64,000 nucleotides of DNA from an uncultured Chloroflexia bacterium (lineage in GTDB: Bacteria; Chloroflexota; Limnocylindria; Limnocylindrales; CSP1-4): NCBI GenBank assembly GCA_963746845.1, contig CAVVCZ010000005.1:224001-288000 (forward strand), written 5' to 3'. Below, in pieces: positions 7,333 to 63,456 of the stretch (its first letter is position 1; each line of letters begins with the position of its first letter). The notes beneath the pieces are model-generated. The model was given only the letters and a program-made list of their open reading frames with translations, was not told the DNA's origin and made no database searches. The position numbers and the translations under genes were made by a program.

Positions 7333-7423
7333 CGGTCCCTGCCTGCCCTCATGTGTTCGCCGTCGCTCCTCGTCAGAGCGGCGCTCCCCTCTCCGCCGCG
7401 CTGTCGTCATCCGGTCGCCGGCC

Positions 7424-7455
7424 AACAAAAAGACCCTCGCCACCCGGCGAGGGTC
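7424..7455 (-). terminator. Attenuator terminator of ilvB leader
   Basis: Minus strand GACCCTCGCC-GGGT-GGCGAGGGTC followed by TTTTTGTT, 27 nt after the leader peptide stop. Confidence 0.88.
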
Positions 7456-7482
7456 CCGTTGGTCTGCGGTGGTTCGCTGCGC

Positions 7483-7626
7483 CTAGCGCCCGTCCCTCCG
7501 TGTTCCTCCGTTCTCCCGCCGGGAGCCGGTAATGAGGAGGCCGACGAGGCCGTCAAGACCGGCAAGGAGGAAGCGAAGAAGACCAAGGAGCGAACCGTCG
7601 TTGAGACCCGAATCATCGAGCGGCAT
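7483..7626 (-). CDS. Putative Leu-rich attenuator leader peptide (47 aa)
   Basis: MPLDDSGLNDGSLLGLLRFLLAGLDGLVGLLITGSRRENGGTRRDGR: 12 Leu (5 CTT), Val, Ile(ATT); lies between promoter and terminator upstream of ilvB; start could be GTG 7653. Confidence 0.7.
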   Translation of the reverse strand: MPLDDSGLNDGSLLGLLRFLLAGLDGLVGLLITGSRRENGGTRRDGR

Positions 7627-7742
7627 GTGGACGCGCCGACCATCCGTCGTCACGACGACGGCGACATGGCGACGATTCCGGCCATCGAACAGACCCAACG
7701 CGGTCTCCCGAACGCGGCCCGGTCGACCCGGGCGGTTTGCGC

Positions 7743-7771
7743 AGTCTACGAGGCGCCCGGTGATCATGCAA
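7743..7771 (-). promoter_or_regulatory. Sigma70-type promoter for ilv-leu leader
   Basis: TTGCAT-N17-TAGACT on minus strand. Confidence 0.65.
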
Positions 7772-7829
7772 CCACCCGGACCCCACGTGAGTGCTCGTGC
7801 CGTCACGAACCCCGATCGCCGGGAACTGA

Positions 7830-7857
7830 CGAGACCGCCGGTCGCCCGACGGTCTCG
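7830..7857 (-). terminator. Hairpin downstream of small peptide genes (probable terminator)
   Basis: CGAGACCGTCGG-GCGA-CCGGCGGTCTCG 12-bp stem (one G-U), GNRA loop; weak U tail. Confidence 0.55.
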
Positions 7858-7888
7858 CATGTTTCCGATCCCTCAGGGTGAGAGCCGG

Positions 7889-7993
7889 TCACAACTTCCA
7901 GCGCTGTCCCGCCTCGAGCACGAGAGCGGAGCTTGCGATGGCGGACACGACCATCAGAACTCGAAAGGCCTGAGCCTTCAGCATCCGAGTCAT
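7889..7993 (-). CDS. Small signal-peptide-like protein P2 (34 aa, ends EAGQRWKL)
   Basis: Manual translation MTRMLKAQAFRVLMVVSAIASSALVLEAGQRWKL; starts 4 nt after P1 stop; paralog at 63358-63456 with synonymous-only differences over 13 codons. Confidence 0.82.
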   Translation of the reverse strand: MTRMLKAQAFRVLMVVSAIASSALVLEAGQRWKL

Positions 7994-7997
7994 CTGG

Positions 7998-8087
7998 TCA
8001 ATACCAGCGCAGGCCGGCGCCGATCGTCAGGGCCAGCGACGCCACGAGCATCACTGCCCATGTGAGGCGCACCAGGTTGCCCTTCAC
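7998..8087 (-). CDS. Small signal-peptide-like protein P1 (29 aa, ends GAGLRWY)
   Basis: GTG 8087 preceded by SD GGAAGGAG; MKGNLVRLTWAVMLVASLALTIGAGLRWY; directly downstream of riboswitch; shares AG-x-RW tail with P2/P3. Confidence 0.8.
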   Translation of the reverse strand: MKGNLVRLTWAVMLVASLALTIGAGLRWY

Positions 8088-8123
8088 ATTCGACTCCTTC
8101 CGAGTCTGTCGAGGTCGTCGGCC

Positions 8124-8197
8124 CCTGGCAACCGGGCGGTCTTCCGGAGAAGATCCCTGGCTTTGCGTCCCCGCCTCGCGACGGGTTTGCCCTGGAC
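8124..8197 (-). ncRNA. Cyclic di-GMP-I (GEMM) riboswitch aptamer
   Basis: CAGGGCAAACCCGTC-GCGA-GGCGGGGACGCAAAGCCAGGGATCT...AGACCGCCCGGTTGCC matches GEMM hallmarks GGCAAACC / GNRA loop / GGACGCAAAGCC / GGTTRCC. Confidence 0.92.
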
Positions 8198-8338
8198 AGT
8201 GAGCACGGCGGAGGGACACCCGTCCCTCGAACCCGACGATGGGCGGTTCGTCACCCCGTGGACACGGGACGAAGGTCCCGGCCCGCCTCGACGGGTGGGG
8301 GAGTTGTCGGCGGGCACCGCGCCGCCGGGACGGCCCGA

Positions 8339-8899
8339 TCAGGACGCGGCGAGGTCCCCGGCGGCGGCCGCGCCCTGCCGGCCCCGGCGCATCACGACGA
8401 CGAGCAGGACGAACACGCCGGCCGCCAGCAGGACGTCACCCACGCTGAAGACGTTCGCGAAGGGGACCCAGCGCGGAAGGGCGAACCGGTCGATCAGGAC
8501 CGGCAGGTTCGGGCTGGCGACGACGGCGCTGTTCGAGTAGATGGTCGGCGCCGTCTTGCCGAGGCTCGCGAGTGCCTCGGGCGTCGCCGGCATGAACCCG
8601 CCGTTCGTGATGATCGCGGCCATGTTGCAGGCGGCACCGAGGACGATCAGGGGCAGCCCGGGCAGATCGAGGTTGCGGAGGACGGCAACGACCACGAGCA
8701 GGGTCGTCGCGACGTACAGGATCGGACCGGCGTCGCCGACCCGGGACGCGACCGCGTCCGAGAACAGCACGACCTGACCGAGGAAGCCGACGACGATCAG
8801 CGGCGCCCACCGGAAGCGGATCTCCGCGATCGCCGAAAGCCGGCCGCCCGTGGCCAGTCCGACCACGATGCCCGCGACGAGGGCGTACAGGATGAACAT
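8339..8899 (-). CDS. DUF5317-type membrane protein, copy 1 (186 aa)
   Basis: MFILYALVAGIVVGLATGGRL..., N-x6-NGGFMP, LIDRF, NVFSVGDVLL; ATG 8899; C-terminal part of the 1034-aa track ORF. Confidence 0.82.
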   Translation of the reverse strand: MFILYALVAGIVVGLATGGRLSAIAEIRFRWAPLIVVGFLGQVVLFSDAVASRVGDAGPILYVATTLLVVVAVLRNLDLPGLPLIVLGAACNMAAIITNGGFMPATPEALASLGKTAPTIYSNSAVVASPNLPVLIDRFALPRWVPFANVFSVGDVLLAAGVFVLLVVVMRRGRQGAAAAGDLAAS

Positions 8900-8907
8900 C
8901 GTCCGTC

Positions 8908-11601
8908 CTAGCTCGCCGGCTGGATCGCGGTCCGGCGGGGCGCCGGCTCCGGGCGGACGGCGCCCGGCTTCGACCACAGGGCCGCGGCGATCGTCGGGCC
9001 GTCGGCGGGGCGGGCGAAGTAGTAGCCCTGGCCCAGCTCGCAGCCGAGGTCGCGCAGCGCGGTGAGCTGGCCCTCGTCCTCGATCCCCTCGGCCACGACC
9101 TGGAGGTTGAGCGTCCGGCCGAGGGCGATGATCGCCCGCGCGAACGCCCACTCGTCCGACGATGCCTCGGCGCTGCCGATGAACTCGCGGGCGATCTTCA
9201 GGATGTCGACCTGGAACCGGCGCAGGTAACCGAGCGACGAGTACCCGGTCCCGAAGTCGTCGATCGCGATCCGGATCCCGAGCGCCCGCAGGGCCTGCAG
9301 GCGGGCGATCGTCGTGTGCGTGTCGTGGAACATCGCCGACTCGGTCAGCTCGAGGATCAGGTCGGTCGCCGGGAAGCCCGTCTCGGTGAGGATCGACTCG
9401 ACGTCCTCGACGAACGTCGGCTGCTGGAGCTGGGCGGCGGACAGGTTGACGGACAGGGCGATCCGCTCCGTTCGCCGGTCCCGCCACGACTCGACCTCGC
9501 GGCAGCTCTCGTGGAGCATCCACCGGCCGAGGGCGAGGATCGTCCCGTTCTCCTCGGCGAGGCGGATGAACTCGTCCGGGCGGAGGATCCCGCGGGTCGG
9601 GTGGCGCCATCGGACGAGGGCCTCGACGCCGTACGTCGCCCCGGTCGCGAGCGTGACGATCGGCTGGAAGTGGGCGAGGAGCTCGCCGCGGCCGATGCTC
9701 TTCGTCAGCTCGGACGCGAGCGCATGTCGCTCGACGAGGGCGGCATGCATCGTCGACTCGAACACGGCATAGCGGTTCTTGCCGGCCGCTTTCGCGGTGT
9801 ACATCGCGACGTCGGCGTTGCGCAGCAGCTCGTCGGCCCGCTCGCTCTCCGCGCCGGCCCGGGCGGCGGCGACGCCGATGCTCGCGGCGATCGAGATCTC
9901 CTGCCCGTCGATCTGGAGCGGCGCCTGGAGCGCCTCGAGGATCCGCCGGCAGACTGCGATGCTCTCGGACAGGTCGGCCGTGTCCTCGAGGAGGATCGCG
10001 AATTCGTCGCCGCCGAGCCGCGCCGCGAGGTCGGTGGCCCGGACGCAGCCGCGGACGCGATCCCCGACGGCGATCAGGAGCCGGTCGCCGGCCACGTGTC
10101 CGAGCGTGTCGTTGACCACCTTGAAGTCGTCGAGGTCGATGAACAGGACGACGGGCCGGCGGATACCGCTGTCGGCCAGGATCCGACCATCCACCTGCTC
10201 GACGAACAGGCTCCGGTTCGCGAGCCCGGTCAGCGGGTCGTGATAGGCCTGGAACCGGAGCTGCTCCTTGAGCCGCGACAGCTCGGCCAGCGACTGCTCC
10301 AGCTGACCGTTCTCCAGGGCGACCGCGGCCTGGTTCGCGAGCGTCTCGAGCAGCCGCAGGTCGTCGTCGGTGAAGACCGTCCCCTCGGTCAGGCGGTTGC
10401 CGACGAGCATCGAGCCGATCAGGGTGGACTCGCCGCGGAGCGGGGCGACCATCGCCTGGCGCAGGGTCGCCCGCTCCGGTTCGAACGGCGACGGGCTGAA
10501 GAAGAACGCGTGCGGCTCGTTCCGGATCCGGCGGGCGATCGGATCGTCCGGCGTGAACGGCACCGGGACCATGGCCGTCGCGGGCGCGCCGTCGATGCTC
10601 GTCGTCCGGAGCGCGTCCTCGCCGGGGATCCGCGGATGGAGCAGCACCTCGGCGCGCTCGGCGCGGAACATCTCGCGGGCGTGGTCGAGCAGGGCGACGA
10701 TCGCCGAGTCGAGCTCCGGCGAGTGCTGGAGGATCCGCCCGGACTGGTACAGGAACTCGAGCCGCTCGCCCTTCTCGCGCTCCGACAGATAGGCCCGGTA
10801 GGCGAGGAAGACCGTCACGAGCGGGACGATCAGGAGCCAGAGCAGGCCCGGGTCGAGCCACAGGATCGACACGGCCAGGAGCGCCAGGCTCGTGTTGGCG
10901 ACGGCGACGAGGCCGCCGAACTGGATCATCTGTGGCAGCTTCTGGAACTGCGGCGCGCCGCCCGACAGCGAGATCGCCGTGGCGATCGTCACCGCCGACA
11001 GCACGGTCGTCGTCAGCGTCGCGGCGAACGCCGCCACCCAGTCCGCAGCGCTGGGCGTCCCCTCCAGGTTCGCGATCAGGTGGAACACGACGAGCGCGGC
11101 GGTCGCGCCCAGCCCGAAGTTGGTCACGTTGAACGCGAACTTCAGGGGAGGCTGGCGGAACCAGGCAAGCGCCACGGCGGACCCGATCAGGATCACGGCG
11201 AGGATGTAGTCGTGCGGACTGAGGAGGAACAGCCCGATGACGGCCGGGAACTCGCTCAGCGAGAAGCTGTGGGCCTCGCGCCGGAAGTGGACGTCGATGA
11301 CCTTCAGCTCGGCCAGGCAGAAGCCCGCAGCGATCAGGGGCCACGGGAAGTCGATCGGGACGAGGGAGACGTGCGGCCGCGGCTCGATGACCAGGATGTC
11401 GAGGAGGACGGCGACCAGGGCGAGCGAGGCCGTGAAGGCCCACACCCGGAGCGCGGGCGAGCCGACACCGACGCGCAGCCGCTCGAGGCTGCGCCCGCCG
11501 GCGGCGACCATGTCCTGTTCGAGATCGTCCTTCGCTCGGACCGTCGCCGGGCGTCCTGGCGGATTCCCGCCCACGCGCGCCTCCATTCCGTCCCGTGGCA
11601 C
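8908..11601 (-). CDS. Multi-TM sensor + GAF + diguanylate cyclase (GGDEF) + EAL phosphodiesterase
   Basis: ~7 hydrophobic segments with LKFAFN motif, GAF (LANQAAVALEN), HDPLTGLANR, RATD I-site, GGDEF, VEALVRW, DDFGTGYSS, EGIE, GQGYY; start may be 11586 or 11511. Confidence 0.93.
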   Translation of the reverse strand: MPRDGMEARVGGNPPGRPATVRAKDDLEQDMVAAGGRSLERLRVGVGSPALRVWAFTASLALVAVLLDILVIEPRPHVSLVPIDFPWPLIAAGFCLAELKVIDVHFRREAHSFSLSEFPAVIGLFLLSPHDYILAVILIGSAVALAWFRQPPLKFAFNVTNFGLGATAALVVFHLIANLEGTPSAADWVAAFAATLTTTVLSAVTIATAISLSGGAPQFQKLPQMIQFGGLVAVANTSLALLAVSILWLDPGLLWLLIVPLVTVFLAYRAYLSEREKGERLEFLYQSGRILQHSPELDSAIVALLDHAREMFRAERAEVLLHPRIPGEDALRTTSIDGAPATAMVPVPFTPDDPIARRIRNEPHAFFFSPSPFEPERATLRQAMVAPLRGESTLIGSMLVGNRLTEGTVFTDDDLRLLETLANQAAVALENGQLEQSLAELSRLKEQLRFQAYHDPLTGLANRSLFVEQVDGRILADSGIRRPVVLFIDLDDFKVVNDTLGHVAGDRLLIAVGDRVRGCVRATDLAARLGGDEFAILLEDTADLSESIAVCRRILEALQAPLQIDGQEISIAASIGVAAARAGAESERADELLRNADVAMYTAKAAGKNRYAVFESTMHAALVERHALASELTKSIGRGELLAHFQPIVTLATGATYGVEALVRWRHPTRGILRPDEFIRLAEENGTILALGRWMLHESCREVESWRDRRTERIALSVNLSAAQLQQPTFVEDVESILTETGFPATDLILELTESAMFHDTHTTIARLQALRALGIRIAIDDFGTGYSSLGYLRRFQVDILKIAREFIGSAEASSDEWAFARAIIALGRTLNLQVVAEGIEDEGQLTALRDLGCELGQGYYFARPADGPTIAAALWSKPGAVRPEPAPRRTAIQPAS

Positions 11602-11677: not shown

Positions 11678-12244
11678 TCAGGAAGTTGGCGCGTCCGCGG
11701 GTCGGTCCGGGGTCCCGTCGGCGCGCCGCTCCCGGCGCATCGCCGCGGCGATCGCGACAGCGACCCCGACCCCGATCAGCACGTCGCCGACGCTGAAGAC
11801 GTTGGCCATCGGCAGCCACGCGGGCAGCGCGAAGACGTCGGTCAGCGGCTCGAGGGCTGGTCGTTCGACCACGACGCTGTTCGTGTTCGGGCCGACGCCC
11901 ATTCCGAGGGTCGCCAGCGCGGCCGGGCTGGCGGGCATCGCTCCGCCGTTCGCGAGGATGGCCGCGAGGTTGAGGCCGGCCCCGACCGCGATCAGCGGGA
12001 CGCCGGTGATCCCGAGGTTGGCGAGGACGACGATCCCGACGAGGGCGGTCGACCCGACGTAGATGGCCCGTGCGACGTCCGGGGCGAGGCCGTCCGCCAG
12101 CGGTGAGAAGAGGACGAGCTGGATCGCCAGGGCGACGAAGACAAGTGGGCCGAGCCGGAAGTGGACCTCAGCCAGCCGCTCGAGGCGACCGCCGAGAAGC
12201 AGCCCGACGACGATCCCGGCGATGAGCCCATAGAGGATGAACAC
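11678..12244 (-). CDS. DUF5317-type membrane protein, copy 2 (188 aa)
   Basis: GTG start VFILYGLIAGIVVGLLLGGRL..., NGGAMP, LTDVF, NVFSVGDVLI; clear paralog of 8339-8899. Confidence 0.82.
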   Translation of the reverse strand: MFILYGLIAGIVVGLLLGGRLERLAEVHFRLGPLVFVALAIQLVLFSPLADGLAPDVARAIYVGSTALVGIVVLANLGITGVPLIAVGAGLNLAAILANGGAMPASPAALATLGMGVGPNTNSVVVERPALEPLTDVFALPAWLPMANVFSVGDVLIGVGVAVAIAAAMRRERRADGTPDRPADAPTS

Positions 12245-12363
12245 GGTCCCAGTATCCGCGGCTGTGGGGCGTCGGCGCGGGGTCGGCGAGGCGGAGCCGG
12301 GCCCTGTGCTAGCCTCCGGCTCGTCTTGCACCCCCCGCCCAACCGCCTGCAGCCCGGACCACC

Positions 12364-63357: not shown

Positions 63358-63456
63358 ATGCAGAAGGTCAAGTCGCTGGGGTTCAGGATCGTATTGGTCC
63401 TGTCCGCGCTTGCCAGCTCGGCACTCGTGCTCGAAGCCGGCCAGCGCTGGCGCTGA
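63358..63456 (+). CDS. Small signal-peptide-like protein P3 (32 aa, ends EAGQRWR)
   Basis: SD GAAGGAGG; MQKVKSLGFRIVLVLSALASSALVLEAGQRWR; paralog of 7889-7993. Confidence 0.82.
   Translation: MQKVKSLGFRIVLVLSALASSALVLEAGQRWR

Follow-up and report, generated by a model that had tools for sequence, protein, structure and literature searches.

Riboswitches of the cyclic di-GMP (c-di-GMP)-I type, also called GEMM-I (RF01051), include Vc2 of Vibrio cholerae, Cd1 of Clostridioides difficile and Bc1 and Bc2 of Bacillus thuringiensis, and the targets described for them include adhesins, flagella and motility functions, pili and enzymes. Here we describe an aptamer of this type directly ahead of two tandem micropeptide genes, P1 and P2, in a 64,000-nucleotide (nt) stretch of DNA, hereafter the window, from an uncultured Chloroflexia bacterium of the class Limnocylindria (contig CAVVCZ010000005.1, positions 224,001 to 288,000). 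As in the known systems, the aptamer scores above its gathering score, carries G, A and C at the ligand contacts, lies in a same-strand 5' leader and has a GGDEF-EAL gene nearby. Unlike them, the unit has no other products than two peptides of about 30 amino acids (aa), and a hairpin termed P0 and an outer helix formed by the flanks recur, as judged by eye, around the aptamer.

A c-di-GMP-I riboswitch has been linked to a small hydrophobic peptide gene before: in passages of PMC6563280, two type I modules of C. difficile with 47-aa toxins, CD0977.1-RCd11 and CD2889-RCd12, are associated with the riboswitches cdi1_5 and cdi1_4. According to the same passages, the riboswitch of these modules lies ahead of the antisense antitoxin RNA and the modules are found in prophages (PMC6563280). 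In the window, by contrast, the riboswitch directly precedes the Shine–Dalgarno (SD) sequence of the peptides, and the unit is chromosomal, shows class-wide synteny and carries a conserved heterologous pair.

MgrB, AcrZ, MgtS, KdpF and CydX are small proteins that span the membrane once and modulate larger membrane proteins. Like them, P1 and P2 are about 30 aa long, contain one hydrophobic helix and are encoded beside or near a membrane-protein gene, here of the DUF5317 family. They differ from them in lacking any sequence relation and in forming a paralogous pair with an invariant A-G-x-R-W motif under a riboswitch; moreover, the candidate partner, DUF5317, is itself of no known function. 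SHP, ComS/XIP, Phr and AgrD (with AgrB) are short hydrophobic pheromone precursors of Gram-positive bacteria, with a basic N-terminal end, a hydrophobic body and a conserved C-terminal part as in P1 and P2; as with AgrB-AgrD, the peptide gene adjoins that of a polytopic membrane protein of about 190 aa. Unlike in the pheromone systems, no receptor or regulator gene is adjacent and DUF5317 matches no peptidase family or solved fold; the likeness is one of layout.

In the literature searched, no paper was found on a c-di-GMP riboswitch with a micropeptide pair as its sole cargo, although supplementary gene-context tables may list the open reading frames (ORFs); nor did that literature yield any paper on DUF5317 or on c-di-GMP in Limnocylindria. 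We rate the locus as a new small-protein family and a new operon type within the known logic of the c-di-GMP-I regulon, and the unit is probably a new kind of c-di-GMP pathway output.

P1 and P2 are conserved, paralogous protein genes

Both genes lie on the minus strand. P1 (7998..8087) has 29 codons, with a GTG start at 8087..8085 and a TGA stop at 8000..7998, and its paralogue P2 (7889..7993) has 34 codons, with an ATG at 7993..7991 and a stop at 7891..7889. An initial annotation, made from the window sequence alone, had described two tandem, related micropeptides, the first with a strong SD and forming the tail of a longer ORF, the second starting 4 nt past the stop of the first. The coordinates were confirmed, and so was each of these features: the SD of P1 is AAGGAG (8099..8094, minus), 6 nt 5' of the GTG, a 73-aa ORF in the ORF list of the window ends in P1, and 4 nt separate the P1 stop from the P2 ATG. 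P2 is itself present in that list, among ORFs of at least 25 aa.

The initial annotation had also made conservation of the reading frame in related genomes, with a check of the ratio of non-synonymous to synonymous substitutions (dN/dS), the way to examine the pair, and the orthologues bear it out. In those of P1, the frame, the GTG start, the SD and the stop are all kept. Among 17 aligned units, diversity at the first, second and third codon positions is 0.20/0.085/0.33 in P1 and 0.175/0.047/0.40 in P2; the order third > first > second is thus shared by both genes and is not seen in the adjoining non-coding parts. The cores of P1 and P2 contain no indel column in the same alignment. Pooled dN/dS (Nei-Gojobori) is 0.34 for P1 (41 distinct sequences) and 0.18 for P2-type genes (58 sequences), values obtained from sequences chosen by motif pattern, which biases dN downward. 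Synonymous diversity (pS) is 0.32 in P1 codons 1-10 and 0.50 in codons 11-27, and the lower value fits a constraint at the RNA level in the first codons.

As a weak hint of expression, a single metatranscriptome run gave two contigs, one of 151 nt spanning 8011..8161 with 1 difference and one of 164 nt spanning 7903..8066 with 14 differences; DNA carry-over is possible for both. A pile-up of sequencing runs at 8151..8193 represents the conserved aptamer core from many organisms, and other runs cover small shares. We regard P1 and P2 with high confidence as real, conserved and paralogous protein genes.

P1 and P2 share, without gaps, the core K-x4-R-x8-A-[ST]-x-A-x4-A-G-x-R-W. Across 42 aligned members, the columns K6, R11, A20, A23, A28, G29, R31 and W32 are invariant and S21 is nearly so; the AG-x-RW element to which the initial annotation had drawn attention is therefore common to the whole set. 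Two subfamilies can be told apart around it. The residue preceding AG is G in the P1 subfamily and E or Q in the P2 subfamily, and the x of AG-x-RW is L, M, V or I in the former and Q, H, R or K in the latter. The W is followed by Y, S, D, WD, WE, N or nothing in P1 orthologues and by K, KL, KV, R, N, VK, H or nothing in P2 orthologues. Since these residues vary or are absent, the tails are not the conserved part, and the suggestion that LRWY and QRWKL stand for two signal specificities is not supported.

Each peptide has a single hydrophobic stretch, with basic residues enriched at the N-terminal end, and the best 19-residue Kyte-Doolittle means are 1.95, 1.8 and 2.15 (1.95 for P1 and 1.8 for P2). 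Given the positive-inside rule and the basic N-terminal end, an N-in/C-out topology is predicted for both. The ORF ends 0-3 residues past the W, at most about 11 residues beyond the last small-residue site. A resemblance to signal peptides, proposed at the outset, thus survives as far as the basic N-terminal end and the one hydrophobic stretch are concerned, whereas no mature domain of the kind expected of a Sec-secreted protein was found past the n-h-c regions of P1 or P2. The comparison of the A-G element with a lipobox devoid of Cys fared worse: no Cys follows A-G in any of the 42 members, and none of them contains a Cys at all.

Four members of the family are present in this genome: P1, P2, a third inside the window and a fourth outside it. 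A scan of the whole genome with the signature returned three such ORFs, and the reversed genome none. With P2 as the query, matches were obtained in 35 of the 36 other genomes of the genus and, weakly (E 0.09-0.24), in 2 of 24 genomes of a sister family of small genomes. When a family profile was used, 16 of 401 genomes of the phylum matched, the convincing ones belonging to the window's own family (6 of 23) or to a second Limnocylindria family (3 of 16). Six further 'same phylum' profile matches (E 1e-3 to 8e-3) were short, partial and inside long frames, and were taken as chance. The 56 related loci come mostly from metagenome-assembled genomes of Candidatus Limnocylindrales/Limnocylindria or Chloroflexota, a few carrying other labels. 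The genomes are mostly incomplete metagenome bins, and one of them, unpublished (G010, locus L032), adds single rows on which no claim depends.

In a protein library of 1.84 billion representatives, 231 clusters matched at E<=1e-3 and 21 at E<=1e-10. The clusters inspected contain proteins of 29-35 aa, or longer calls with the match at one end, which we take to be start over-calls or read-through, and the source databases label their members 'hypothetical protein' or leave them nameless. Pfam returned no family for P1 or P2 at E<=1, NCBIfam none for P1, P2 or the third copy at E<=10, and the nearest Atlas clusters likewise lack a Pfam family. In a metagenomic protein of 70 aa (P0001), peptides of the P1 and the P2 type are joined in a single frame, the R-W of P1 having been lost; this could be a true fusion or the result of an error in assembly or frame.

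A predicted c-di-GMP sensor ahead of P1

The key to the locus is a c-di-GMP riboswitch ahead of P1, which is missing from the initial annotation. The aptamer (8123..8200, minus strand) ends 35 nt 5' of P1 and scores 63.2 bits with the c-di-GMP-I-GGC model RF03167 (gathering score 59; E 1.5e-12, whole window), the top-scoring Rfam model in the window and in its relatives. RF01051 matches at G000:C5:232124-232201, that is, 8124..8201 of the window on the minus strand, with 60.5 bits against a gathering score of 35. The c-di-GMP-I-type aptamer is the sole Rfam family to reach its gathering score anywhere in the 64-kb window. In the cmscan alignment, G, A and C stand at model positions 10, 37 and 74, which we take to correspond to the ligand contacts G20, A47 and C92 (Vc2 numbering). 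Because of these residues, we read the aptamer as an ordinary canonical c-di-GMP sensor, its specificity being predicted from sequence.

At the variant-defining position, the GGC model has a consensus G (GACGCGAA), while the window has an A (GACGCAAA), as have 47 of 48 related units; the aptamer therefore lacks the G at the intercalating position that defines c-di-GMP-I-GGC. We take the higher RF03167 score to reflect overall sequence likeness rather than variant specificity. The name 'GGC' presumably denotes the replacement of the middle A by G, with Weinberg et al. 2017 as its likely source. The variant is merely named as a family in the relevant part of PMC12452182, and the passages concerned of PMC7266159 contain nothing on it.

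The association between aptamer and peptides recurs across the genus. Of 40 other genomes in the genus, 39 have c-di-GMP-I matches. Coordinates could be compared in the 36 genomes covered by both searches, where a strong P2-like match lies at most 260 nt after 26 of 80 c-di-GMP-I matches (22 of the 36 genomes); conversely, 26 of 58 strong P2-like matches have a riboswitch. Further units hold a P1-type peptide only, and the P2 query picks these up weakly. With 26 of 80 matches preceding peptides, the latter may form a major arm of the c-di-GMP regulon in these uncultured Chloroflexota. In more distant genera and the second family, the aptamer precedes the peptide in 6 of 12 scanned loci. A strict pattern was applied to 48 distinct riboswitch units, a set fetched via the peptide and thus uninformative on riboswitches in general. 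It detected two peptides in 34 of them, a single peptide in 9 and no peptide in 5; when read by eye, several of these 5 show divergent members.

RNA elements and limits of the unit

The order of elements is constant: P0, aptamer, linker, SD hairpin, start-codon hairpin, P1, P2, a variable hairpin and a conserved hairpin. It was established from a DNA alignment of 17 units of the genus and from wider sets of 42 to 48 distinct units. P0 (GAGGGAC-GGGT-GTCCCTC; 8211..8228, minus) lies directly 5' of the aptamer, and its position is kept in 42 aligned leaders, with stems that vary yet remain complementary by eye (GAGGAC/GTCCTC, GCGGCG/CGCCGC, GAGACG/CGTCTC); it could serve to stabilise the 5' side or mark where an upstream transcript ends. 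The outer helix formed by the aptamer flanks shows compensated changes, again by eye (CGCCG/CGGCG, CGTCGG/CTGACG, CGCTC/GAGCG).

Two small hairpins occupy the initiation region of P1. The first (GACTC-GGAAG-GAGTC; 8092..8106, minus) contains part of the SD, and an SD-overlapping hairpin recurs in related leaders with other stems (by eye, CCTCC/GGGAGG, CCTTC/GAAGG and CCCGC/GCGGG). The second, predicted at 8060..8089 (minus), encloses the start codon (AUGUGA...UCACAU; in most relatives GUGAAGGCG/CGCGCUUCAC). In 35 sequences, 85.7% of its cells are paired, compared with 30-60% when the partner strand is slid. The initial letter of the start codon takes part in a G-C pair in 29 of these sequences and in an A-U pair in 3; in the other 3 it is left unpaired. 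Covariation in this hairpin is modest, with 7 double-change cells versus 3.3 +/- 1.5 after shuffling, a value reached by 9 of 500 shuffles. No terminator-like element was found between the aptamer and P1, which makes translation initiation the most likely level of control. RNAalifold, applied to the whole leader, recovered little beyond the aptamer, and a 9-bp pairing between the 5' strand of the aptamer and P1 codons 9-12 was dropped, as it is not kept in the nearest relative.

No AGGAG-type SD was seen ahead of P2. In 36 tandem units, P2 starts at -7 to +11 nt relative to the end of the P1 stop, and the closeness of the two points to translational coupling. About 35 nt past P2 lies a conserved G+C-rich hairpin (GAGACCGTCGG-GCGA-CCGGCGGTCTC; 7831..7856, minus), which aligns in 17 of 17 units and shows a C-G to T-A exchange in its stem. 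It is terminator-like, without a clear U tract, and the terminator scan did not call it, there being no T run. The aptamer before and the conserved hairpin after the pair indicate that the unit encodes just P1 and P2. A small charged ORF on the plus strand (…EEADEAVKTGKEEAKKTKERTVVETRIIERH…; ~7520..7800), with no Pfam match, converges on the unit; if this ORF is real, the hairpin could terminate transcripts from both directions.

DUF5317 is the most constant neighbour of the peptides

The order on the minus strand is DUF5317, GAF-GGDEF-EAL, DUF5317, riboswitch, P1, P2 and ilvB-ilvN. The DUF5317 gene directly 5' of the riboswitch (8339..8899, minus) encodes a membrane protein of 186 aa (PF17248, E 2.3e-26). 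It is preceded by a gene for a membrane GAF-GGDEF-EAL protein of c-di-GMP turnover (8908..11601, minus; Pfam EAL 7.9e-77, GGDEF 1.6e-43, GAF_3 4.2e-11) and by a second DUF5317 gene (11678..12331, minus; PF17248, E 1.4e-24), the true start of which is uncertain. On the other side, a 12-bp G+C-rich hairpin with a T run (7430..7457, minus), which belongs to no Rfam family, stands directly before ilvB and may be an attenuator or leader terminator of ilvBN.

Among riboswitch units with at least 600 nt of flank, 38 of 43 have a same-strand DUF5317 gene upstream. The C-terminus of a GGDEF-EAL protein is found upstream of DUF5317 in 37 of 106 fetched loci, a count that is not deduplicated and in which many flanks are short. 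DUF5317 also stands beside peptide copies without a riboswitch (L034, L035 and L046), and two successive modules of DUF5317, riboswitch and peptides occur in L011, L060 and L064. No other gene adjoins the peptide family as constantly as DUF5317, and it is this constant adjacency, an association and not a proof, that leads us to propose a joint function.

The distribution of DUF5317 is wider than that of the peptides: it was found in 64 of 201 sampled Chloroflexota genomes and, among the controls, in Thermus and Thermotoga. In another Chloroflexota family (one genus, both of 2 genomes), a 28-aa ORF, MKYAYRLA...ASGAGI[RH]W, follows about 60 nt past the DUF5317 stop with no riboswitch (L183, G116:C180, and L186, G199:C13); six other regions checked showed no such peptide. 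The third DUF5317 of the present genome (G000:C1:69393-71546; L176, 394..2547) is the N-terminal domain of a 717-aa protein with a C-terminal MFS_3/MFS_1 part. This fusion seems to be widespread, to judge from the open frames of 620-750 aa that many Limnocylindria genomes have at their DUF5317 matches.

The AlphaFold model of DUF5317 (mean pLDDT 86.8) consists of five long helices and a non-helical stretch, ~99-152, between the last two. This loop holds most of the invariant polar residues of the protein, its invariant positions being N99, G100, G101, M103, P104, N123, S124, D137, N149 and S152. From the distribution of Arg and charge, the loop of the model is predicted to face outward, on the same side as the A-G-x-R-W ends of the peptides. 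Complex prediction for DUF5317 with P2 gave 0.08 and 0.26 against a mark of 0.32, with no controls, and speaks neither for nor against binding.

The lipobox comparison had a counterpart on the side of the protein, namely a relation of DUF5317 to signal peptidase II, which failed at both the profile and the fold level. PF01252 matches only the true LspA of the genome (C4:888199-888612) and not DUF5317, and hhalign aligned the two with a probability of 0.7 and an E-value of 0.078 over 34 columns. Foldseek against the PDB gave nothing at E<=0.001, LspA being absent among the 5 matches listed, and the DUF5317 profile found 0 matches among PDB sequences. The relation was rejected. The motifs N-G-G-x-M-P, L-x-D-R and N-V-x-S-x-G-D of DUF5317 and LspA are alike by eye only, DUF5317 matched no peptidase family, and an automatic label 'lipoprotein signal peptidase' on one DUF5317 relative in one source was given no weight.

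A possible c-di-GMP-gated membrane peptide pair

The explanation we favour, while doubt and belief are evenly balanced for it as a whole, is a translationally coupled pair of single-pass membrane micropeptides gated by c-di-GMP and working with DUF5317. That P1 and P2 are real genes under this riboswitch is very probable; their role as partners of a membrane protein is somewhat less likely than not. Starting from the observed genes, their conservation, the aptamer and the synteny, we infer translational gating, coupling, topology and partnership with DUF5317 as follows. A dedicated two-gene mRNA with a canonical c-di-GMP-I leader would yield P1 and P2. Binding of c-di-GMP would alter access to the P1 initiation site, and control would be translational, since no terminator precedes P1 and the SD and start codon lie within small conserved hairpins. 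P2 would be translated by coupling to P1. Both peptides would insert N-in/C-out, with their basic N-terminal end, one hydrophobic helix and conserved A-G-x-R-W end, and would act in the membrane with the DUF5317 protein encoded upstream, as small subunits, regulators or substrates. The neighbouring GGDEF-EAL enzyme would set the c-di-GMP pool, and the peptides would be a direct output of that pool.

Several results weigh against this explanation. Partition-function folding of 42 leaders gave the same accessibility of the SD and start codon whether or not the aptamer was insulated (0.43 vs 0.42). The third and fourth peptide copies of the genome do not adjoin DUF5317, 5 of the 43 riboswitch units have no DUF5317 upstream, a Limnocylindria genome (G188) has a free-standing DUF5317 with no peptide detected, and outside the class a peptide was flagged at only 1 of 29 scanned DUF5317 loci. 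The genomes are mutually related and their counts are not independent. The dN/dS values are affected by the choice of sequences by motif and, in P1, by the additional RNA constraint on the first 10 codons. Finally, translation and membrane insertion of P1 and P2 are themselves predictions.

If the explanation is correct, an operon of two peptides only would extend the direct outputs of c-di-GMP to small membrane proteins, and it would provide a first functional handle on the DUF5317 family. The system is compact, with an RNA of ~350 nt and two peptides, which makes gating by the start-codon hairpin and translational coupling amenable to testing.

The best surviving alternative, unlikely in our estimation, is that the peptides are precursors, in which the N-terminal part would serve as an export or anchor signal and a C-terminal A-G-x-R-W or x-R-W piece would be released as a signal or matrix component, with DUF5317 processing it or handing it over. 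Their n-h-c layout is signal-peptide-like. Small residues are typical of the surroundings of a signal-peptidase cleavage site, and the invariant A20-[ST]21-x-A23 could represent those at -4, -3 and -1. The conserved motif would, by the positive-inside rule, be at the outer end, the invariant polar residues of DUF5317 are predicted to lie in an outward, non-helical loop, and the third DUF5317 is fused to an MFS_3/MFS_1 exporter, with frames of 620-750 aa in many Limnocylindria. However, the residues past the putative cleavage site are hydrophobic (LVL, LTI), which would bury the site in the membrane, and the lack of Cys excludes the lipoprotein pathway. DUF5317 has neither a profile nor a fold likeness to signal peptidase II and no peptidase family match, and no receptor-type gene is conserved beside the unit, where only GGDEF-EAL, DUF5317 and ilvB are found. 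A related and quite improbable reading sees in the locus a new peptide-handling system and a novel kind of c-di-GMP effector output, in which c-di-GMP formed or broken down by the GGDEF-EAL protein would, via the riboswitch, gate two complementary micropeptides and DUF5317 would turn them into an extracellular or envelope output, acting as a membrane enzyme or adaptor that recognises, processes or exports their outward A-G-x-R-W ends.

It is also rather improbable that P1 and P2 are membrane-perturbing peptides, similar to type I toxins or holins, that are silenced in the mRNA and released by c-di-GMP for growth arrest or dormancy. They do have the size and hydropathy of such peptides (29 and 34 aa; 1.95 and 1.8), with charged ends; their SD and start codon are buried in hairpins, and several copies are present per genome. 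Type I toxins are typically patchy in distribution, whereas this unit is syntenic across the class, with a fixed P1+P2 pair under purifying selection. A scan of both strands of 7400..8950 found 0 promoter-like sites, a weak argument because only the sigma-70 consensus was scanned. The riboswitch-associated type I modules of C. difficile offer a precedent but, in the passages that describe them, the riboswitch precedes the antitoxin RNA and not the toxin (PMC6563280).

A third alternative would make P1 and P2 regulatory upstream ORFs or leader peptides for the downstream, same-strand ilvB-ilvN, with only the act of translation being of importance. A same-strand ilvB does follow in many loci, and the hairpin with a T run before it (7457..7430) is terminator-like. 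We nevertheless consider this very improbable: conservation extends to the peptide sequence itself (dN/dS clearly below 1 and eight invariant residues), the conserved hairpin marks the end of the unit, and P2 and ilvB are about 450 nt apart. Eight units (L044, L045, L047, L080, L097, L100, L107 and L108) have no ilvB in the flank, and family members elsewhere have none either. Units without ilvB and a hairpin after P2 argue against ilvB as the regulated gene.

The last alternative, that the region is a non-coding expression platform or 3' part of the riboswitch with incidental ORFs, could appeal to the first ~30 nt of P1, which are conserved at synonymous sites and form a hairpin, but is largely refuted by the three-base periodicity of substitutions with no frame-breaking indels, by the paralogy of P1 and P2 to each other and to riboswitch-less copies with their own SD, and by the 231 matching clusters of the protein library.

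Other peptide copies and aptamers of the genome

The third family member (63358..63456, plus strand) has 32 aa, is preceded by an SD of its own (GAAGGAGG) and matches the family profile with an E-value of 1.4e-15; the presence of their own SD is common to the riboswitch-less copies. No riboswitch reaching the gathering score and no DUF5317 gene were found beside it. It sits between a 4-hydroxyphenylpyruvate-dioxygenase-like region and a proline-dehydrogenase-like gene, both named by eye from their translations. The fourth member, of 33 aa, is located outside the window (G000:C5:300855-300953, minus) and has neither a riboswitch nor a DUF5317 neighbour.

Three further c-di-GMP-I aptamers were observed elsewhere in the genome. 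Two of them, on the minus strand at G000:C5:217386-217459 and G000:C4:602085-602157, lie ahead of genes for larger proteins that are paralogous and carry an N-terminal hydrophobic anchor; these look like ordinary secreted or surface targets. The other, G000:C4:727366-727463 on the plus strand (locus L177), scores 66.9 bits with RF03167. About 110 nt 3' of it, an AGGAGG SD is followed by a different hydrophobic ORF of 31 aa, which ends in ASARP[IL], and then by hairpins. This ORF is kept in the nearest species checked (L178), and the unit may, judging from its layout, represent a second type of riboswitch-controlled micropeptide.

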